UHGV virus genome: UHGV-1789692
DNA from: a virus
Length of the DNA: 11,134 nt
Reading direction: 5' to 3' (one strand)
The position numbers were made by a program, and so were the translations under genes. Shown here in pieces: positions 1-11,134 of this stretch; the stretch's first letter is position 1; each line of letters starts with the position of its first letter. Below the pieces are notes generated by a model. It searched no databases, was not told the origin of the DNA, and saw nothing but the letters and a program-made list of their open reading frames with translations.

Positions 1-34
1 GTCTCGTGGGCTCGGAGATGTGTATAAGAGACAG
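1..34. other. Illumina Nextera transposase adapter (read-2 type, GTCTCGTGGGCTCGGAGATGTGTATAAGAGACAG); technical artefact, not biology
   Basis: Exact 34-nt match to the Nextera adapter including the 19-nt mosaic end AGATGTGTATAAGAGACAG; its reverse complement is at the other contig end. Confidence 0.95.
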
Positions 35-191
35 ATGTTGGATATTGTTCAGGGTCATTAATAATTTTACTTATAGTTGTTTTACCTGCACCATTAGCTC
101 CATATAAATAGTTAAATTTAGAAAGCCCATGTAAAAGCTGAGTAGGGCCATTATATGAGCCTACTTTGTCAATAACTACCTCTTCAATCAT
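35..191 (-). CDS. Partial CDS (N-terminal 52 codons; rest lost at contig edge): P-loop NTPase with Walker A motif, candidate defence-type ATPase
   Basis: ATG at 191 (minus strand) preceded by GAGGAT; translation MIEEVVIDKVGSYNGPTQLLHGLSKFNYLYGANGAGKTTISKIINDPEQYPT contains a canonical Walker A (GANGAGKTT). The gene is AT-rich relative to the neighbouring prophage genes and runs into the adapter. Confidence 0.6.
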
Positions 192-384
192 CCTCTAATC
201 CTCAAAAAACAGATTAATCCTATCAAATCAATGATAATAGAAGACATTACTTACCTAATTACAAGGTGATCATTTATACAGCTGTGAATAAATCAGGCTA
301 ATCATCTATTTGTCATAACGCGCGCTCGTATCCCCGCCACGCCTGCCCGCTTTATGTAGTGGTTTTCATGCACCTGCATGATCT

Positions 385-412
385 ACGCAAAAGCCCGCCA
401 GTTCTGGCGGGC
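385..412 (-). terminator. Rho-independent terminator ending the SOS operon transcript (minus strand)
   Basis: 8-bp perfect stem GCCCGCCA / TGGCGGGC (393-400 / 405-412) with a 4-nt loop; on the minus strand it is followed by TTTT (388-391). On the plus strand it is not followed by a T-run, so it reads as unidirectional. Confidence 0.65.
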
Positions 413-547
413 CTTAGCAAAAACGATCCTCAAACGATCATGCGATCTCATGCGGCATAGACATGCACTACAGAGCTAACGCCTCGCAAGGGCTCGTTGT
501 TCAACCTTGCTGACGCCAGAAGCAAGTTCAGACGCCAGCAACGTTTC

Positions 548-781
548 TTAATGCAGCCAGCTGTCGTCTTCCCACACCTTCTGCATAATTTTCATCACTT
601 GTTTTCTTTCTTCGTCCAGTTGCAGTCCGGTTAGTTCCACACCGTTAGAGCTACCTTTGCGAATGCGAATTACCGTTTTGGGATACAGGGGGCGCAGATT
701 GCGGTAAAGCTCGGATTCAAGGGCGTCCAGGGTAGACTGGCTAATCTTCTGCTCTTTATCGATCATTATTTCAATGCGCAT
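548..781 (-). CDS. dinI: DinI-like SOS damage-inducible protein (77 aa)
   Basis: ATG at 781 with GAGGTG 7 nt upstream. Protein MRIEIMIDKEQKISQSTLDALESELYRNL...KQVMKIMQKVWEDDSWLH aligns along its length with recalled E. coli DinI (MRIEVTIAK...AIDALAGELSRRI...KQRISEILQETWESADDWF). The 101-aa track ORF starting at 853 is an upstream extension. Confidence 0.8.
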   Translation of the reverse strand: MRIEIMIDKEQKISQSTLDALESELYRNLRPLYPKTVIRIRKGSSNGVELTGLQLDEERKQVMKIMQKVWEDDSWLH

Positions 782-791
782 AAAAGTCACC

Positions 792-980
792 TCAGCTGAT
801 GACATCCATTGAGCGGTTGTATTCGTGGGTTCTGATTTTTGCCATGAGTTCATCAGTCAATTCAGAAACCCACTGCAGAGCCAGCCCCTTCTCTTCATCA
901 CTACACTCACTAGCCGCTACAAGCTTAAGAAAAAAATCAATGCGCTGGAGCTTCAAAGACTCCAAAAAATAGTCCTGCAT
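792..980 (-). CDS. Small protein (62 aa), first gene of the LexA-controlled operon; possible Tum-like antirepressor by position only
   Basis: ATG at 980 preceded by a strong AGGAGG RBS at about 5 nt spacing; protein MQDYFLESLKLQRIDFFLKLVAASECSDEEKGLALQWVSELTDELMAKIRTHEYNRSMDVIS. The 96-aa track ORF starting at 1082 would put the LexA box and promoter inside the coding region, so the shorter start is preferred. Function is inferred from operon position, not sequence similarity. Confidence 0.5.
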   Translation of the reverse strand: MQDYFLESLKLQRIDFFLKLVAASECSDEEKGLALQWVSELTDELMAKIRTHEYNRSMDVIS

Positions 981-1021
981 CTTTCCTCCTATGACACCAC
1001 ACGCAATACTGTATGCATAAC

Positions 1022-1041
1022 CACTGTTTATATTTACAGTA
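1022..1041. promoter_or_regulatory. LexA (SOS) box
   Basis: CACTGTTTATATTTACAGTA: perfect CTGT-N8-ACAG with an AT-rich spacer (consensus TACTGTATATATATACAGTA), about 42 nt upstream of the operon ATG at 980 and overlapping the predicted -10. Confidence 0.8.
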
Positions 1042-1064
1042 TATAATAATCTTACTGATGTAAA
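1038..1064 (-). promoter_or_regulatory. Candidate sigma70 promoter of the SOS operon (-35 TTTACA, 15-nt spacer, -10 TATACT)
   Basis: Read on the minus strand: TTTACA (1064-1059), 15-nt spacer, TATACT (1043-1038); the -10 overlaps the LexA box, the classic arrangement for SOS-repressed promoters. Confidence 0.5.
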
Positions 1065-1133: not shown

Positions 1134-3548
1134 TTAATACAGGTTCCGCCACTGATCATCTTCCTGCAAACGCTGGTTCCGATAGAAGATACGCAGGCCT
1201 GCTCCTGACGGAATACTGCCTCCGCGAAGGAGTAAATCGACCTCTTTCTCGCTGCCATCAAATCCTCTGGACTTCAGCTCATACACGAGCTGCAGTCGCT
1301 GATGGTCTGTAATTCGCTGTTTGTAGTCTTTACGCCGTTTCGGTTTCACCAGGCGTAACCTTGCTGCCAGTTCCCGGCGCTCTTTTTTGCTCATACTGTG
1401 CAGGTAATCGTGCAACTCCTTGTCATCCATGCTGGTAATGTCCGTTCTGGGGTCCCCATCAGCTGATTTATCTTTCTCCTGTTGGTTCAAATTTTCAGCA
1501 AGGGGACAGTTATTGCCACGAGTCCAAGGGGCGCAAGCGCCCTGGTCGGCTGCCGCCTCCTGAACGTCAACGGCCTTACGAACCATTTTCCACTTCACGG
1601 CATGAGTGCAGATTTTGCCCTCTGCAATGGGTGACCAGATGCCATAAATACGAATGCCGTGATCGCCATAGGCGGTCGGCTCTTCGTTGATTTCATAAGC
1701 GGTTCTGATGAGGTGATATTTGCGGGGGACCAGTACGCCGCCCTGCTTCATGATGTAGGTGGCAAAACAACCAGCATCAGCTGCAGCCAGAATGGCATCA
1801 AGGCGCGGGTTATCCAGTACCGGCGCACCTGCTTTTTTGTCACCCTGTTGCCTTGCCGCCTGACCAGCCAGCAATCGCAGTTCACGGTAAGCCTGACGCC
1901 CCGGAATGCCAAAGAAGCGGAATTGCTGAACACGATGCAGAGACGCCCAGGCATTAACGTATTCAGCGTTATCACGCAGAGATTTACCCGTTTCCTTGCT
2001 GATCTCGCCAGCCAGACCACGCCCGTCAATGTTCTTACTGATGTATTTCGCGATGTAGCTAGTCGGCGTTCCTTTGCGCGGGTTTATCAGCTCAGACTTA
2101 AAGCGTGGCCCCGTGTTATTACCCAGCTCCTCGCGGTCTTCACGAATGGCAAACTTACGCAACAAAGCAGTAATGGTGCGGCGATCTTTTTTGCGCATAA
2201 AACACAACAGGTGCCAGTGAACTGTACCGTCATGATGCGGCTCAGCCACCCGCACGCCATACCAGCGCAATCCGGCTTTGTGCATCGCCTTACGAAATGC
2301 AGCAAACATGCCGACCAGATAATCACTGCTTTGTCTTACCGTCGTATTTGTCCAGGTCGGGTTGGGCCTGCCGTTATTTAGCGTGGAATGGAAACGTGAC
2401 GGACAGGTGATGGTGTAGAAAACGGCGCAGTCACCGCGCATTTCCGCGATAAGCTCCAGACCTTTAACACAGGCCATCATCTCATTGCGGCGATGCGCAG
2501 GGTTGCTGCAGCTGGCGTTTACCACATCCTCCATGTCCAGCGTGTCGCCGTCTTCGTTCACCAGTTCATGAGAACGGAAAAACTCCAGCGACTTACGGCG
2601 CTGCTCACGTTTATGCATCACGGCTTCATAGCTGACATAGGGAGATGCTTTTTTGCTGACCAGGCAAACAGCACGCAACTGCTCTTCCCGCCATTCGCAA
2701 CGCATCTTCCATAATTTCCGGTACCACCAATCGGCGCACAACATACGCGCCAGCGAACCCGGAATGAGTTCATAGGGCACGGGTTTACGGCGGTTTCTTT
2801 TCCGGCGGAGTTGCTCAAACGCAGGCGGTATGACATCCAGTCGCAGGGTTTCTGCTGCCACCTTTTCCCATGTCTTGCGGATTTCTTCTGGCTTAACGTC
2901 ATCGGTGGCATACAAATCGCCACAAGCTGCATCAAGGCACATGCTCATATGCGCAGCAACAAGGGTGGACAGGCGTTTCACCTGATCCTGACTCATTTCA
3001 GGCAGAATCAGCAGGCCGTCCAGCCCTTCATGGCTTGCCATAAAGCGAAAAGAAGTGGATAGCTGACTGTCGCGTACATGCTCCAGCCGTTCCAGACATG
3101 GCTTAATCGTCTCACGCAAATAGCGGGAATAAGCCTTTGGCCTGCCAAGGCTGCTGAAGTATTCAATACGTTGCATCAGCGGCCTGCTGATATGGGAAGG
3201 CTGGGCGTTAACGTCTGCCAGAATGACCATGTCCGGGTTAAAACGCTGCTGCTCATGCGCCAACTTTGCCCGGCTAATGAGCTTATCCTGCTCCATTTCG
3301 CGCTGGACAGGATCACGGGATTCATTAAAGAAATAACGCTCCCAAACCTGATCACTCAGTGCCTCGCGGCGCAGTTGTTCCTGCTCGTTATCGGCAGCGT
3401 ACAGAGTGATCAGGTTTGAAAGCGCAGAAACCGGCGCAACTTCCGCCGGGTCCAGATAAGGGTTAATAGCCTTTTTCGGGCTGTTCCATGAGAATGCTGC
3501 GGCGGCCTCGTTAAAGCCGCTGCAGTTGTTCATATCAGCATGGCTCAT
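1134..3548 (-). CDS. Rolling-circle replication initiator of the phage P2 gpA family (804 aa)
   Basis: Large ORF with ATG at 3548; contains an HUH motif ([10 protein letters not shown]) followed by a paired-tyrosine active-site motif ([13 protein letters not shown]-x-x-K-Y as in phiX174/P2 A proteins). Sits downstream of the immunity and early genes as in P2/186. Its start overlaps the Dam stop (ATGA). Confidence 0.85.
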
Positions 3549-4402
3549 GCACGCACTCCGTACACGGCAGAACTATCCACGCCACGCGAAGGATCAAATC
3601 CCACCCAGCAGCGCGCCCCAGAAACAGCGATGATTTCTGTTGCAGATTTACTCTCGCCAGCCGACACGCCGATGCTGCGTTTTGCCTTGATGTAGTGGTG
3701 AGTGAAATTTCGATACAGCGAACGGATCAGGGATGTGTCACTGTTAGAAACAATGACTGGATGACCTTCTGATGATCGATATTCAAGAACAGATGCCAGG
3801 TGATACTGGTCATCTTCAGTGAAGCCGTCAGTGTGATAGCCGGAAAACGTACCGTCATAAGGCGGATCGCAATACACCACATCCCCCACCTGCAGCATCG
3901 CCAGCGTTTCATCAAAGCTGGCGCAGATAAACGTTGCTCGCTGGGCTTTCTCTGCAAATGCGCGAATTTCTTTTTCAGGGAAATACGGATTTTTATAATT
4001 ACCGTATGGAATGTTGAAATGCCCGCTCTTGTTATAACGACATAACCCACGGTAACCATGACGATTGAGATACAGGAAATATACCGCTTTCATGAAATCA
4101 GTAATTTCAGTGGAGTAATTAAACTCCTGCCTTATGTTGTAATAAGCCAACTCCCTGTTTGCTTCCTCAAATAAAGCTCTGGCACGAGATATAAACGCCT
4201 CGCAATCAGCAGCAACCTTTTTATAGAGGTTGATTAAATCAGGATTAATATCCGCAACAAGATAGCTGGGGTAATCCGTCTCCATCATCACAGCACAGGA
4301 ACCCGCGAAAGGTTCAACCAGTCGCGGGCCAGCAGGAAGATGTTTTTTCAGTTCGGACATAATGGCAGTTTTATTACCCGCCCATTTCAGGATGGTACTC
4401 AT
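3545..4402 (-). CDS. dam: Dam-like N6-adenine DNA methyltransferase (probably GATC-specific), 285 aa
   Basis: ATG at 4402 preceded by GGAGGTG; N-terminus [23 protein letters not shown]...[11 protein letters not shown]...[13 protein letters not shown] matches the Dam signature (KWAGGK, VEPF.G.G, ADIN.DLI); catalytic DPPY is present (VYCDPPYDG), as is [15 protein letters not shown] (Dam: LYLNRYGYNGLCRYN). The 309-aa track ORF is an upstream extension. Confidence 0.9.
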
Positions 4403-4701
4403 ACAGCACCTCCTGCAATAACATATCCTAAAGCTTCTAATGGGGTTAATGGGCGAATTGATAGCATCACCCATTGTTCTGAAACTGCCATGACGTCATT
4501 AACCGGAAGCACATGAGAGATAACAGCGGCCCATTCCCTACCCGTAAATACGCCATGCTTCCATTCGCAAAGAGAAAGAACATCACCAACTTTATAGCCA
4601 CGATCGTCTTTACGAAGTTCAGCCGTCTTTTGACCTGCAACCACAGCGTTGAAATACTTAGGTGCAATTTTTAATTGATGGATACGCACTGCCCTTGTCA
4701 T
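4399..4701 (-). CDS. DUF3850 / ASCH-like (PUA-fold) protein, 100 aa
   Basis: ATG at 4701 preceded by GGAGGTG; N-terminal [33 protein letters not shown] resembles the DUF3850 pattern (H.LK..P.YF.AV..G.KT.E.R..DR....GD). Stop overlaps the Dam start (ATGA). Confidence 0.55.
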
Positions 4702-5988: not shown

Positions 5989-6498
5989 TCACAGCAAACC
6001 GAATGAAGCACCGAGGCCAGTCACGGTATCAACTGCACTCACCATCGCAGGATTAGCCTGTAAACGGGCCTGCAATGAAACAGCCGCCAGCGCCATCAGT
6101 CGTGTTACAGAGTTAATGCTGCTGATAGCATCACGACGACCGGCACTAGTTTTTACATCACCAGATACCGCACCTGCTGCAACACGCCCGATCTCTGCAG
6201 TTGCGCTCATGACGTAATGCGGCAGTTTCTCTTTTGCCACCTCATTAATCGGTACACATGGCAGACAATGAATCTGTGCCAGAAAACCATCTACCAGCGT
6301 TGAATCTTCAGTCAGATCGGTAAGCAGCCAGATTTCTGGTGCGGTTAATAAATGAGGCTGAGCTGGGTTCAGCTTGTTCCGCAGAATCTGCACATTCATG
6401 TCTGCACGTTCTGCCAGTTGCACCAGGTTGTGACGCAGTGCAAAAGCCCTACAGGCTTCATCGAAATGCGGATGTTTGGAAATCTTGTAATCAAACAT
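5989..6498 (-). CDS. cII: Phage 186 CII-like regulatory protein (169 aa)
   Basis: ATG at 6498 with AGGGGG 6 nt upstream; second gene after the Apl/Cox-like gene in the lytic operon; the length matches 186 CII as recalled; N-terminal region is HTH-like. Assignment by position, size and recalled family, not by alignment. Confidence 0.55.
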
Positions 6499-6530: not shown

Positions 6531-6773
6531 TTACTTACCAACAATGACGCGGAAGTTGGAATGACCGAGGGATTCACGGACCTGATCAGTTTTGTACATC
6601 AGATAACGAAGGCTTACGCGGCCTTTATTTTTTTCTTTCTTGACCATGTACTTAGCAAGTTGACCATGGTGAATTTTTTGGTAAACAGAGCCACGGGAAA
6701 TGCCCTCCCACTCTGCGAACTCTGCAGGCGTAGCCATCTCTTTTGGTACACGAATTGAAATATCAGTACTCAT
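6531..6773 (-). CDS. Apl/Cox-like small HTH excisionase and transcriptional regulator (80 aa)
   Basis: First gene of the leftward lytic operon, divergent from the CI-like gene; small basic protein with an HTH-like segment (ATPAEFAEWEGISRGSVYQKIHHGQLAK). The RBS before the 6773 ATG is weak, so the start is uncertain. Confidence 0.55.
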   Translation of the reverse strand: MSTDISIRVPKEMATPAEFAEWEGISRGSVYQKIHHGQLAKYMVKKEKNKGRVSLRYLMYKTDQVRESLGHSNFRVIVGK

Positions 6774-6894: not shown

Positions 6895-7527
6895 ATGTTA
6901 AACATCAGAATGGGTTCCGATACGGGAGGTAAGGCAGCTATTGAGAGGCTGCTTGAGGCTTATGGATTCACAACTAAGCAGGCATTAAGCGAGCACCTGA
7001 ATGTCTCAAAAAGTACTATGGCAAACAGAGTGTTACGTGACAGTTTTCCTGCTGACTGGATAATTCAGTGTGCACTAGAAACCGGTGTTTCGTTACTTTG
7101 GTTAGCCACTGGACAGGGAAGCATGAAAGAAGGATACGAGCCTGAGAAAAGATCTCATAACGAGAACAAACAAGCAATTAAACCGTTATCCAAACTCATA
7201 ACTCCATCTATTCCTAAAGGAACCTTGGAAAATGGACAACTCAGTATTGATGAAGAGATTTTCCTAGACCACAGCATATTACCTGCAGATTATGAAGAAT
7301 CGATGTTCTTAGAAACCCCTACTGATTGTTATCTCATCGATAAATCAGTTAAACAAGTCAGCAATGGATTCTGGCTTATCAATATTGATGGAATGATTAT
7401 TATTGCAAAAATCATGCGGATTCCCGGCAATAAGATTGTAGTAAATCAAGATGAAGCGTCTTTCGAGTGCTCTGCTGATGATGTGGAAGTTATTGGGCGT
7501 GCAGTCAAAGTAATAAAGAGTATCTAA
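6895..7527 (+). CDS. cI: CI-like immunity repressor, phage 186 type (210 aa)
   Basis: ATG at 6895 with GGAGA 7 nt upstream; N-terminal HTH (TTKQALSEHLNVSKSTMANRV) followed by the phage-repressor phrase LLWLATGQG; lies immediately upstream of and co-oriented with int, divergent from the Apl/CII operon, as in 186. Confidence 0.7.
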   Translation: MLNIRMGSDTGGKAAIERLLEAYGFTTKQALSEHLNVSKSTMANRVLRDSFPADWIIQCALETGVSLLWLATGQGSMKEGYEPEKRSHNENKQAIKPLSKLITPSIPKGTLENGQLSIDEEIFLDHSILPADYEESMFLETPTDCYLIDKSVKQVSNGFWLINIDGMIIIAKIMRIPGNKIVVNQDEASFECSADDVEVIGRAVKVIKSI

Positions 7528-7529
7528 AC

Positions 7530-8546
7530 ATGACTGTCAGAAAACAGCCAAACGGTAAATGGTTGTGCGAGTGCTATCCCAATGGACGCAATGGCAAGCG
7601 CGTGCGTAAGCAATTTGCTACGAAAGGCGAAGCCATTGCTTTTGAAAGCTTCACAATGGAAGAAGTGAACAAAAAACCATGGCTGGGGGAAAAGGAAGAT
7701 CGGCGACACCTATCAGAATTAATTGAGCAGTGGTATTCCCTGTATGGTCAAACACTCGCAGACCCCAAGCGCCTCATAGCGAAACTTAGAATTATCTGTA
7801 ATGGTCTAGGCGATCCCATCGCTTCAGAACTGACAGCCGGTGACTTTACGAAATACCGCGAAGCACGGTTAAAAGGTGAAGTACGAAATGAAGATGGCAC
7901 GTTTATGTCGCCCGTTAAGCCCCGCACGGTAAACCTTGAACAGCGCAATCTATCATCTGTTTTTGGTACACTGAAAAAGCTGGGCCACTGGTCAGCCCCC
8001 AACCCGCTTGCTGGGCTGCCAACATTTAAAATTGCTGAGAGTGAATTGGCGTTCCTGACCCCGGAAGAAATTAAACGTCTGCTGGATGCCTGCGCCGATT
8101 CTCAAAGCTCCAGCCTGCTTTTGATTGCAAAAATATGCCTGGCCACCGGCGCACGCTGGAGCGAAGCCGAAAACCTGCAGAGTCATCAGGTATCAAAATA
8201 CCGTATCACTTATACCAAGACCAAAGGCAAGAAAAACCGAACTGTGCCTATTTCTAAGGATTTATATGAAGAACTGCCTAAGAATAGGGGGAAGTTATTC
8301 ACCCCATGCAGAAAAGCCTTTGAGCGTGCAGTAAAGCGGGCTGGTATCGATCTGCCAGAGGGTCAATGTACTCACGTTCTGCGTCATACATTCGCTAGCC
8401 ATTTTATGATGAATGGTGGAAACATATTGGTTTTGCGGGATATCCTAGGACATTCAGATATAAAAATGACCATGGTCTATGCACACTTCGCCCCAGACCA
8501 TTTAGAAGATGCCGTAACTAAAAATCCTTTATTTAATTTGAGGTAA
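7530..8546 (+). CDS. int: P2-type tyrosine integrase (338 aa)
   Basis: N-terminus ...GRNGKRVRKQFATKGEAIAFE parallels recalled P2 Int (...GRNGKRIRRKFDKKSEAVAFE); catalytic region CLATGARWSEAE, HVLRHTFASHFMMNGGNILVLRDILGHSDIKMTMVYAHF contains the R...H-x-x-R...Y tyrosine-recombinase signature. Starts 2 nt after the CI-like stop. Confidence 0.9.
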   Translation: MTVRKQPNGKWLCECYPNGRNGKRVRKQFATKGEAIAFESFTMEEVNKKPWLGEKEDRRHLSELIEQWYSLYGQTLADPKRLIAKLRIICNGLGDPIASELTAGDFTKYREARLKGEVRNEDGTFMSPVKPRTVNLEQRNLSSVFGTLKKLGHWSAPNPLAGLPTFKIAESELAFLTPEEIKRLLDACADSQSSSLLLIAKICLATGARWSEAENLQSHQVSKYRITYTKTKGKKNRTVPISKDLYEELPKNRGKLFTPCRKAFERAVKRAGIDLPEGQCTHVLRHTFASHFMMNGGNILVLRDILGHSDIKMTMVYAHFAPDHLEDAVTKNPLFNLR

Positions 8547-8556
8547 GTAGTAATTT

Positions 8557-9225
8557 ATGAATAGCGAACTAGAGTTACTTATAAAAATATTATTCCCTTC
8601 CCTATCTGCCATTATATCCTTATTAGGGCTTAAAACAGGGTGGACTTATAAAAAAGACAAACTATTCACATCACGTAAAAACATTAGCGAATTTTCATAT
8701 CAAATGTATAAAAGCAGTGAAGATCCGACCTTCAAAAAACTGGCGGAAGATTACGGCATTGCTGCATTAACCAAAGATAACACATTGACAAAAAAACAAA
8801 GATTAATATTACTCAACACAACAAACCCCGTTAGCGATATAGATGATTATTCCAAATGTCAAAGTCTAATTTCCATTACCACCCATAAAGAAATATTCGC
8901 ATGGAATAAAAAAAGATATAAATACAGCATATATCTGTCTCTTATACACATTATAACAACTCTAATTTACTTCATGGGCAGTCTCGTCGTAGCACTTCCT
9001 TTCAGTTATTCTGTTGTAGTAAGTGCTAAGATGATGGAGAAGATAAACCATCTAACTACTTGGCAATACTTTGGTTTAAGCAGCTATTTTGTGGTATCGG
9101 GAGTAGCAATATGCTTTATCTGCCTAGATAAGCTCTCCAAGATTAAGATCGCCGAGAGATTAATCGTTTCAAATAGGCGTTTAGGCGACAAATGCAGTGG
9201 CGGCACTTTGGCGGCAGAAAGTTAA
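8557..9225 (+). CDS. AT-rich cargo gene: 222-aa predicted multi-pass membrane protein of unknown function, between int and the att core
   Basis: ATG 11 nt after the int stop, same strand; visibly much more AT-rich than the flanking prophage genes; hydrophobic segments LIKILFPSLSAIISLLGL (N-terminal), YSIYLSLIHIITTLIYFMGSLVVALPF and YFGLSSYFVVSGVAICFICL separated by charged, K-rich soluble regions. No family recognised. Confidence 0.65.
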   Translation: MNSELELLIKILFPSLSAIISLLGLKTGWTYKKDKLFTSRKNISEFSYQMYKSSEDPTFKKLAEDYGIAALTKDNTLTKKQRLILLNTTNPVSDIDDYSKCQSLISITTHKEIFAWNKKRYKYSIYLSLIHIITTLIYFMGSLVVALPFSYSVVVSAKMMEKINHLTTWQYFGLSSYFVVSGVAICFICLDKLSKIKIAERLIVSNRRLGDKCSGGTLAAES

Positions 9226-11107: not shown

Positions 11108-11134
11108 CTGTCTCTTATACACATCTCCGAGCCC
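11108..11134. other. Illumina Nextera adapter, reverse complement (CTGTCTCTTATACACATCTCCGAGCCC); technical artefact
   Basis: Exact reverse complement of the mosaic-end adapter at the 5' end of the contig; the track ORF 10927..11124 begins with MCIRDR, the usual translation of this adapter. Confidence 0.95.

Follow-up and report, generated by a model that had tools for sequence, protein, structure and literature searches.

An SOS (tum) operon with a predicted colicin-type LexA operator in a Fels-2/186-type P2-like prophage, and the diverse CI repressors that accompany its TumA

In coliphage 186, the p95-tum operon follows the replication gene A, has a LexA box over a TACTGT -10 hexamer, and encodes Tum, an antirepressor of the 186-type CI repressor. 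By binding CI, the fused 186 Tum keeps the repressor off its operators (Shearwin et al. 1998, as related in PMC3121763 and PMC7708051). It is one 146-aa polypeptide in which internal starts yield DinI-like products and, according to the annotation of 186, the DinI-like part made alone only modulates induction. Fels-2 and PSP3 are described as having tum divided between two genes, the first for the antirepressor and the second a dinI homologue, and the PSP3 antirepressor is given as the upstream gene (both from PMC3121763). The PSP3 annotation itself calls tumA "similar to 5' end 186 tum; UV induction of prophage" and tumB "similar to dinI and 3' end of 186 tum". The Salmonella prophages Gifsy-1/2/3 (dinI-gfoA/gftA) likewise have a LexA-repressed dinI homologue, a small antirepressor and a non-cleavable repressor, although they are lambdoid rather than P2-like, place dinI first, and have antirepressors and repressors unrelated in sequence to those considered here. 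The Gifsy antirepressors are also capable of acting on other prophages in trans, and non-polar dinI deletions leave Gifsy induction unaffected (PMC3121763). In an Escherichia coli HS prophage, an in-frame tum deletion abolishes mitomycin C induction, and lexA(Ind-) likewise abolishes it, as reported in PMC12055606.

We analyzed 11,134 nucleotides of the virus genome UHGV-1789692 (the window), in which positions 548-1064 very probably (roughly 0.9) represent the SOS (tum) operon of a Fels-2/186-type P2-like prophage (Peduoviridae) of E. coli. The anatomy, homologies and conservation of this operon were observed directly. The whole module, comprising the promoter, the LexA box and two open reading frames, lies on the minus strand, and the original prediction of a LexA box over the -10 of a promoter preceding a 62-aa ORF and a DinI homologue was borne out in each of these positions. 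Its placement of the operon next to a replication gene was also correct: the gene for the 804-aa replication initiator A (1134..3548, minus strand) precedes the operon directly, ending at 1134, and matching phage records annotate its product as a replication protein or endonuclease. Its statement that the LexA-repressed operon of 186 encodes Tum together with a DinI-like ORF was right about the operon and wrong about the separate ORF, since in 186 Tum itself has the DinI-like sequence as its C-terminal half. The gene pair STM2728/STM2726.1 of Fels-2 and the tum/dinI-like pair of the HS prophage DuoHS are essentially the operon of the window, sharing the site after gene A, the promoter and the double LexA box, and differing in the partner CI, the candidate operator repeats and the cargo beyond the terminator. 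In the window, this cargo is an AAA_13 ATPase located downstream of the operon terminator. PSP3 resembles the window in its two split genes after gene A, its LexA-boxed promoter and a closely related TumB; it differs in a highly diverged TumA of 60 aa, a single LexA box and a CI with two tandem N-terminal domains. The 186 operon also has a single LexA box, and orf97 follows within it. No Rfam matches and no tRNAs were found across the window.

The 62-aa ORF, hereafter tumA (792..980 including the stop, minus strand; ATG at 980, stop at 794-792), is preceded by a conserved Shine-Dalgarno sequence, AGGAGG (985..990, minus strand), 4 nt before the ATG. This start is also used by RefSeq; a longer, 96-aa reading beginning at ATG 1082 was rejected because that codon lies upstream of the -35 hexamer. 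TumA is 98.4% identical to Fels-2 STM2728 and to WP_001154431 of E. coli HS, the product of the prophage gene named tum. The original prediction proposed that this ORF encodes a candidate antirepressor and suggested aligning it with 186 Tum and the downstream ORF with DinI, and both comparisons returned homology. BLASTP yielded no alignment between TumA and 186 Tum, and the relationship of TumA to the Tum N-terminus emerged from more sensitive comparisons: the Smith-Waterman score was 57, against 21.4 +/- 4.0 for shuffled sequences (z ~9; 0/2000 reached 57), and an HMM built on the diverse TumA family matched 186 Tum residues 6-43 with E = 5.9e-8 in a search of 17,909 ORFs that gave zero false positives. 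Identity to the matching part of 186 Tum is about 20%, and the same HMM fails to detect the PSP3 TumA. Taken with the near-identity to an HS gene required for induction, this homology supports a probable Tum-like antirepressor function. Pfam contains no family for TumA, and a profile search of PDB sequences produced only a chance match (E = 1.3). The AlphaFold2 model is a helical hairpin (pLDDT 89.8), for which Foldseek found no PDB match at E <= 0.001 and only generic helical hairpins. An exhaustive profile search of 1.84 billion representatives identified 87 TumA clusters. Several of these reflect gene calls that are chimeric or cut short, and the intact members are small proteins that stand alone. 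None was fused to a DinI domain, so that a search on this scale did not lead directly to the fused 186 form.

The downstream gene, tumB (548..781 including the stop, minus strand; ATG at 781, stop at 550-548), encodes a 77-aa protein of the DinI family, matching Pfam PF06183 along the entire profile (positions 1-63 of 63) with 81.3 bits, where the cut-off is 24.2 (E = 6.6e-23), and E. coli DinI (1GHH) over residues 1-75 (E = 2.7e-6). TumB is 41% identical to residues 71-145 of 186 Tum, so that the two proteins of the window correspond to the N- and C-terminal parts of the fused polypeptide. Membership of the DinI family suggests that TumB presumably acts on RecA filaments by binding them and thereby tunes SOS signaling. 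Immediately 3' of tumB lies a strong hairpin lacking a U tract (503..545, minus strand), and folding of the RNA from 375-550 on this strand gave -72.8 kcal/mol (z = -4.16). An intrinsic terminator follows at 386..415 (minus strand), formed by GCCCGCCAG-loop-CTGGCGGGC and then TTTT, and is placed like t95a after 186 tum.

In a rival reading, the roles would be reversed, with TumB as the real effector (e.g., via RecA or CI) and the 62-aa ORF as an accessory or leader peptide for tumB expression. TumB is indeed the only product with a recognizable family and is 100% identical among the window, Fels-2 and HS. In addition, the Shine-Dalgarno sequence of tumB, GAGGTG (793-788), overlaps the tumA stop codon within a small hairpin, and deletion of tumA could therefore in principle alter tumB translation. 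The HS tum deletion is described without complementation in the available text of PMC12055606, which leaves some formal room for polarity on tumB. However, the published primers for that deletion (NHR24 and NHR28) match the window exactly at 978-1000 and 772-794, and the resulting deletion joins the ATG of the 62-aa ORF to its TGA, leaving the tumA start and stop and the entire tumB ribosome-binding site in place. The phages ESSI2_ev015 and ESSI-2 have no dinI gene but do have a TumA behind a LexA box, which argues for TumA as the module's core component. The modulating role annotated for the DinI-like part of 186 Tum, the assignment of the PSP3 antirepressor to the upstream gene and the inducibility of Gifsy prophages lacking dinI point in the same direction. 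Taken together, these observations make an effector role for TumB highly improbable, and TumA remains the preferred antirepressor.

The presumed target of TumA is the 186-type immunity repressor encoded by cI (6895..7527, plus strand; 210 aa), which contains the domain pair Phage_CI_repr (E = 1.7e-30) and Phage_CI_C (E = 7.2e-31) and is 33% identical to 186 CI, 59.5% to Fels-2 CI and 45.9% to HS CI. DinI homologues are common SOS-regulated prophage cargo, and the operon could accordingly be viewed as an accessory (moron) module that tunes the host SOS response, with induction itself proceeding through RecA-stimulated, lambda-like cleavage of CI; the bare CTGT-N8-ACAG motif is, moreover, not statistically compelling on its own. 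Against this view, Pfam found no Peptidase_S24 (LexA-like protease) domain in the CI of the window, whose 186-type domain architecture suggests that it would not be cleavable through RecA, as the original prediction had anticipated. The orthologous HS prophage lacking tum is non-inducible according to PMC12055606, and TumA is homologous to precisely the part of 186 Tum that is missing from the non-inducing internal-start products. We therefore consider a purely accessory role even less probable than a TumB-based switch. With a CI that is not expected to cleave itself in the manner of LexA, TumA would be the only link between the SOS response and induction of the prophage.

The promoter of the operon, which resembles p95, consists of the -35 hexamer TTTACA (1059..1064, minus strand), 17 nt upstream of the -10 hexamer TACTGT (1036..1041, minus strand), which lies inside LexA box 1 and is identical to the annotated -10 of 186 p95. 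A consensus sigma-70 scanner called no promoter at this site because TACTGT agrees with TATAAT at only three of six positions; this negative was not accepted as proof that a promoter is absent, since p95 of 186, an annotated promoter, has an equally weak -10 of identical sequence. Box 1, TACTGTAAATATAAACAGTG (1022..1041, minus strand), has its CTG-N10-CAG core at 1039-1024. The original prediction of a LexA box was confirmed here, whereas its description of a single box was not, as it overlooked a second box, CAGTGGTTATGCATACAGTA (1007..1026, minus strand), which overlaps the first and has its core, GTG-N10-CAG, at 1024-1009 in the predicted 5' UTR. The two cores have one base in common. The operator is thus a colicin-type pair of overlapping predicted LexA boxes, not a single box. 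The bare motif CTGT-N8-ACAG occurs once in the window (1024-1039) and is statistically weak, with 0.13 occurrences expected per window and at least one in 26/200 shuffles. The complete 20-mer of box 1 carries three mismatches to the 20-nt LexA consensus, a score equalled in 0/200 shuffles; box 2 carries five. Across 47 distinct promoter variants, the -35 TTTACA was unchanged and box 1 almost unvaried; changes in box 2 gathered at its center and just 3' of it, with GTGG and TACAG kept.

The same arrangement, TT[TC]ACA followed after 17-18 nt by TACTGT as the left half of a LexA box, also precedes the homologous gene of 186, where it coincides with the annotated p95 and LexA site, and those of PSP3, Fels-2, E. 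coli HS, ESSI2_ev015 and ESSI-2. The layout is thus kept in seven phages that represent five divergent TumA lineages. Colicin and bacteriocin genes have a closely similar double SOS operator, with two LexA boxes sharing one base directly after the -10. The operator of a colicin-like bacteriocin gene on pCKO3, TACTGTATATAAAACCAGTGGTTATATGTACAGTA, is near-identical to that of the window, TACTGTAAATATAAACAGTGGTTATGCATACAGTA, with the same two-box architecture, and the Fels-2 double box matches the pCKO3 operator at 92% over 39 nt. Paired sites of the colicin type are described as bound by two LexA dimers, resulting in very tight repression (PMC2994835). The colicin operator drives a lethal toxin/lysis operon, whereas that of the window would, judging from its sequence, drive a prophage antirepressor. 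Although both boxes are predicted and deviate from the consensus, a chance or decayed LexA-like sequence at a promoter that is constitutive or controlled by another factor is the least probable of the alternatives, given the shuffling result for box 1, the conservation of a LexA site over the -10 in five divergent lineages, the near base-for-base match to an operator type that binds two LexA dimers, and the block imposed by lexA(Ind-) on induction of the HS orthologue.

In the mechanism that we favor, host LexA would occupy the two overlapping boxes in a lysogen and keep the promoter shut, with box 1 covering the -10 hexamer and box 2 the first bases of the transcript. Upon DNA damage, activated RecA would promote LexA self-cleavage, and the operon would be transcribed. 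TumA would then bind the 186-type CI stoichiometrically and stop its operator binding, releasing the early lytic promoter; such direct binding and inhibition of CI are proposed by analogy with the biochemistry of 186 Tum. TumB would presumably tune the SOS response via RecA filaments and be dispensable for the switch itself.

A single TumA was accompanied by many types of CI. We compared 70 viral contigs encoding a TumA 100% identical to that of the window; all 70 had the CI gene in the same place, on the opposite strand and 5.0-7.5 kb upstream. These partner CIs fell into at least 19 clusters at 90% identity and were 35-87% identical to one another, and their regulatory regions contained visibly different candidate operator repeats. 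Mean identity across the partner CIs was 70% in the N-terminal domain, 35% in the C-terminal domain and 13% in the linker. Only four positions were invariant within the group yet different in the CIs partnered with other Tum types, and all four (I16, K39, A43 and W55) belong to the N-terminal domain. Two of the TumA-CI pairings are functional, that of HS directly, through the tum deletion, and that of Fels-2 according to the literature account of antirepressor-based regulation. The occurrence of an identical TumA with many CIs whose N-terminal domains are conserved and whose C-terminal domains are not suggests a broad-specificity ("pan-immunity") antirepressor, in which the Fels-2-type TumA may recognize not a surface peculiar to each phage but the DNA-binding domain at the N-terminus of CI, which is conserved. 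We put forward this reading tentatively, at slightly below even odds. The association of one TumA with many CI types has not been reported previously.

The operon itself is already known: its mechanism has been described from 186 and its split form from PSP3 and Fels-2, and the gene has been deleted in E. coli HS. Genetic tests have already been made on a copy with 98% identity, and our identification is correct and not new. Among 5426 complete E. coli genomes, 1125 (about a fifth) contain the module, and the prophage type also occurs in many Klebsiella, Salmonella and Yersinia records. In nearly every record, the 62-aa ORF is labeled "hypothetical protein" or, wrongly, "levan regulatory protein". 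The value for annotation is that this mostly "hypothetical" ORF can be named as the probable induction trigger of a widespread prophage type. If the broad specificity of TumA is true, a single TumA made in the SOS response could induce more than one P2-like prophage per cell even where these are heteroimmune, and immunity modules could be swapped freely with inducibility kept. The trigger itself, through the double LexA operator of the colicin type, would be unusually tight and late-firing. These possibilities bear on cross-induction in polylysogens and on how the immunity region may recombine without breaking SOS inducibility.

The LexA-boxed operon on the minus strand at 548-1064 belongs to a system already described and is nearly identical to the operon of Fels-2 and E. 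coli HS. Its 62-aa product, TumA, shares 98.4% identity with both Fels-2 STM2728 and E. coli HS WP_001154431, and its 77-aa product, TumB, is 100% identical in the window, Fels-2, and HS. In phage 186, tum encodes one 146-aa protein, with an N-terminal part needed for antirepression and a DinI-like C-terminal part that is also made from internal starts and "modulates SOS induction", whereas PSP3 has tumA, annotated as "similar to 5' end 186 tum; UV induction of prophage", and tumB, annotated as "similar to dinI and 3' end of 186 tum". According to Lemire et al. 2011, tum is divided by a stop codon in Fels-2 and PSP3, and the PSP3 antirepressor activity is carried by the upstream gene (PMC3121763). 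The original prediction placed a separate DinI-like ORF in 186, where this part is in fact fused to Tum; the split form is that of PSP3 and Fels-2. In the Phollow study of Ortiz de Ora et al., "tum" was deleted from the HS prophage DuoHS (PMC12055606, PMC11195241), and the deletion primers (GTGGTGTCATAGGAGGAAAGATG-TGA and ATG-TGAGGTGACTTTTATGCGCATTG) match the window exactly at 978-1000 and 772-794; the gene deleted in HS is therefore precisely the 62-aa ORF, from start to stop codon. Neither the deletion mutant nor a lexA(Ind-) mutant lysed or produced viral foci after mitomycin C, and an SOS reporter still fired in the deletion mutant (PMC12055606). The deletion and lexA(Ind-) results mean that the experiments originally proposed have largely been done already on an orthologue. 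Of 5426 complete E. coli genomes, 1125 carry the tum module, and it also occurs in many phage records from Klebsiella, Salmonella, and Yersinia.

All elements of the tum region lie on the minus strand. The -35 (TTTACA, 1064-1059) and -10 (TACTGT, 1041-1036) hexamers, separated by a 17-nt spacer, are followed by a Shine-Dalgarno sequence (AGGAGG, 990-985) and tumA (ATG at 980 to TGA at 794-792), and a second Shine-Dalgarno sequence (GAGGTG, 793-788) precedes tumB (ATG at 781 to TAA at 550-548). A generic sigma-70 scanner reported no promoter at the tum region because TACTGT agrees with TATAAT at only three positions; the same hexamer is the annotated -10 of 186 p95. The perfect CTGT-N8-ACAG box predicted over the -10 occurs once in the window (1024-1039). 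The bare motif departs only mildly from chance expectation (0.13 per window; at least one in 26 of 200 shuffles), and the full 20-mer of box 1 (TACTGTAAATATAAACAGTG, 1041-1022), with at most three mismatches to TACTGTATATATATACAGTA, was equalled in none of 200 shuffles. In 186, whose record annotates p95 with its hexamers and the LexA site, and likewise in PSP3, Fels-2, E. coli HS, ESSI2_ev015, and ESSI-2, the homologous gene is preceded by a TT[TC]ACA -35, a 17-18-nt spacer, and a TACTGT -10 that doubles as the left arm of the box. Because the proteins encoded behind this arrangement are down to 20-49% identical to one another, the operator has outlasted the coding sequence.

The single box originally described proved to be half of the operator. 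After box 1 the sequence runs on as GTGGTTATGCATACAGTA, forming an overlapping box 2 (1026-1007), missed in the original prediction, that has a degenerate CTG-N10-CAG core (GTG...CAG, 1024-1009) and one G in common with box 1. Only one LexA box is found in 186 and PSP3, whereas the group comprising the window and Fels-2 has two. The 40-nt Fels-2 version of the operator has matches of about 92% identity in more than 1000 plasmids, mostly mobilizable; in pCKO3 the match, reading TACTGTATATAAAACCAGTGGTTATATGTACAGTA, lies downstream of a TTGACA -35 and ahead of a colicin-like bacteriocin gene accompanied by its immunity and lysis genes. Related loci supplied 47 distinct promoter variants, in which substitutions concentrate at the central three positions of box 2 and immediately 3' of that box; the -35, box 1, and the box 2 arms GTGG and TACAG are nearly invariant. 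The Fels-2 group, unlike the single-boxed 186 and PSP3, therefore uses a double operator of the colicin type. At one locus (L007, about 110 nt upstream of tumA), the sequence upstream of the box 2 centre is unrelated to that of all other loci, leaving tumA without the -35, -10, and LexA box 1; a rearrangement or a chimeric assembly might account for this.

Immediately 3' of tumB lies a strong 43-nt hairpin (545-503) that lacks a U tract and had no match in an Rfam search; an intrinsic terminator follows at about 415-386. The RNA fold of 375-550 (minus strand) gave -72.8 kcal/mol (z = -4.16), and the loop and 3' flank of the hairpin (GAACTTGCTT...GGTTGAACAAC) can be made out downstream of PSP3 tumB as well. 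A further, small hairpin with a T run behind it (786-803, minus strand) covers both the stop codon of tumA and the Shine-Dalgarno sequence of tumB; coupling of tumB translation to that of tumA, or transcriptional attenuation, are possible roles.

The DinI homologue expected behind the 62-aa ORF is present, as the 77-aa product belongs to the DinI family (Pfam PF06183, 81.3 bits against a cut-off of 24.2), resembles E. coli DinI (1GHH, E = 2.7e-6), and shares 41% identity with 186 Tum residues 71-145. For TumA, searches found no Pfam family and no relative among PDB sequences, and BLASTP yielded no alignment with 186 Tum. Aligned without gaps by Smith-Waterman, TumA residues 6-41 scored 57 against Tum 6-41 (shuffles, 21.4 +/- 4.0; 0 of 2000 reached 57), and an HMM built from diverse TumA family members matched Tum residues 6-43 (E = 5.9e-8; 17,909 background ORFs, 0 false positives). 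Judged from these comparisons, TumA is homologous to the Tum N-terminus, which, together with the loss of induction upon deletion of its HS orthologue, supports the predicted candidacy of the 62-aa ORF as a Tum-like antirepressor. The AlphaFold2 model of TumA is a hairpin of two helices (residues 2-23 and 28-61; mean pLDDT, 89.8), for which structural comparison gave no specific relative. The family is restricted to small stand-alone proteins of Enterobacterales prophages. Its members almost invariably bear the label hypothetical, and gene calls frequently extend to an in-frame start further upstream; many of the database entries P0001-P0120 are over-extended in this way, to 84-109 aa, with a start that lies upstream of the promoter. 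The name "levan regulatory protein", given to TumA by one source, is apparently a misannotation. Many distant members carry a glycine-rich C-terminal tail (...GGxSGGGxxLQ), which is absent from the window's TumA.

The CI of the window contains both 186-CI domains (Phage_CI_repr and Phage_CI_C) and, according to Pfam, no S24 peptidase domain, so RecA-stimulated self-cleavage is not expected, in line with the earlier suggestion. Two sources (PMC3121763, PMC7708051) describe 186 Tum as a protein that binds CI, sequesters it, and keeps it from operator binding; by analogy, we infer that TumA would act in the same way on the window's CI. In a lysogen, two LexA dimers would hold the double operator and keep the promoter shut; upon SOS, LexA would be cleaved and tumA-tumB transcribed, TumA would titrate CI, and the early lytic promoter would open to begin the lytic cycle, with TumB presumably acting on RecA filaments to shape the signal. 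The anatomy, homology, and conservation behind this scheme were computed, and the genetic need for tumA and cleavable LexA is taken from published experiments with the orthologue. The core of the module is TumA, because ESSI2_ev015 (L087, 9001-9213) and ESSI-2 (L088, about 7970-8190) have LexA-boxed homologues of 41-49% identity and lack dinI altogether, and because non-polar dinI deletions leave induction of the Gifsy prophages unaltered (PMC3121763).

The window represents the early/regulatory end of a P2-like (186/Fels-2-type) prophage that adjoins csiD of E. coli. Read from right to left, it carries int (7530-8546, plus strand), cI (6895-7527, plus), an apl-like gene (6531-6773, minus), cII (5989-6498, minus), a run of small early genes, dam (3545-4474, minus), replication gene A (1134-3548, minus), and the tum region, with no tRNA genes. 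A 222-aa ORF with hydrophobic stretches between int and csiD (8557-9225, plus) had no Pfam match and is probably prophage-end cargo. Positions 1-191 (minus) encode the N-terminus of an AAA_13/SMC-like ATPase (Pfam E = 5e-9) interrupted by the contig end; this AT-rich cargo reaches about 319, where likeness to other phages begins, and occupies a variable hotspot of P2-like phages. Its position and orientation downstream of the tum terminator are those of 186 orf97, which blocks 186 infection, and it could be SOS-boosted through terminator read-through. The ends (1-34 and 11108-11134) are Nextera transposase adapter (GTCTCGTGGGCTCGGAGATGTGTATAAGAGACAG and its partner CTGTCTCTTATACACATCTCCGAGCCC), the window being a complete short contig with untrimmed adapters. 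The window's Apl is 100% identical to Fels-2 Apl and the adjacent CI only 59.5% identical to Fels-2 CI; a recombination junction lies inside the genetic switch.

An IMG/VR scan returned 80 loci with a TumA 100% identical to that of the window, and a CI gene was found in 70 of them, always on the opposite strand and 5.0-7.5 kb upstream, as in the window. These partner CIs form 19 clusters at 90% identity (35-87% identity between clusters) and include both HS-type and Fels-2-type CIs, which are 46.7% identical to each other; the HS prophage is Tum-dependent by deletion (PMC12055606), and Fels-2 is described as under the same antirepressor mechanism (PMC3121763). The cI-apl intergenic regions carry visibly different repeats (among them TCTTGA/TCAAGA, GTGAAC/GTTCAC, GTACCCAA, CAATATTTGAT, and CCAAAAG), which we read as candidate operators of different immunity types. 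Mean pairwise identity across partner CIs is 70% in the N-terminal HTH domain, 13% in the linker, and 35% in the C-terminal oligomerisation domain, and 21 of the 25 positions invariant in all partners fall in the N-terminal domain. Four residues (I16, K39, A43, and W55) are invariant in the partners and different in every CI paired with another Tum type, an outgroup of only four CIs (186, PSP3, ev015, and ESSI-2) with shared ancestry uncontrolled. Eight loci with the identical TumA (L011, L023, L028, L043, L047, L070, L075, and L082) have a CI gene 5-7.5 kb upstream of tumA whose product, about 290 aa long, places two N-terminal HTH domains in tandem ahead of the C-terminal domain, as PSP3 CI (286 aa) does. 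The co-occurrence of an identical TumA with these diverse partner CIs suggests, at slightly less than even odds (about 0.45), that Fels-2-type TumA recognises a conserved face of the CI DNA-binding domain and would thus be indifferent to immunity type, a reading that goes beyond the literature that could be consulted.

The observation behind the original prediction is confirmed and its interpretation supported; the broad-specificity reading of TumA and the colicin-type operator are modest leads. If TumA is indeed indifferent to immunity type, co-resident heteroimmune P2-like prophages could be cross-induced, as has been shown for the Gifsy antirepressors, which are unrelated to TumA (PMC3121763), and immunity modules could be exchanged with inducibility kept.
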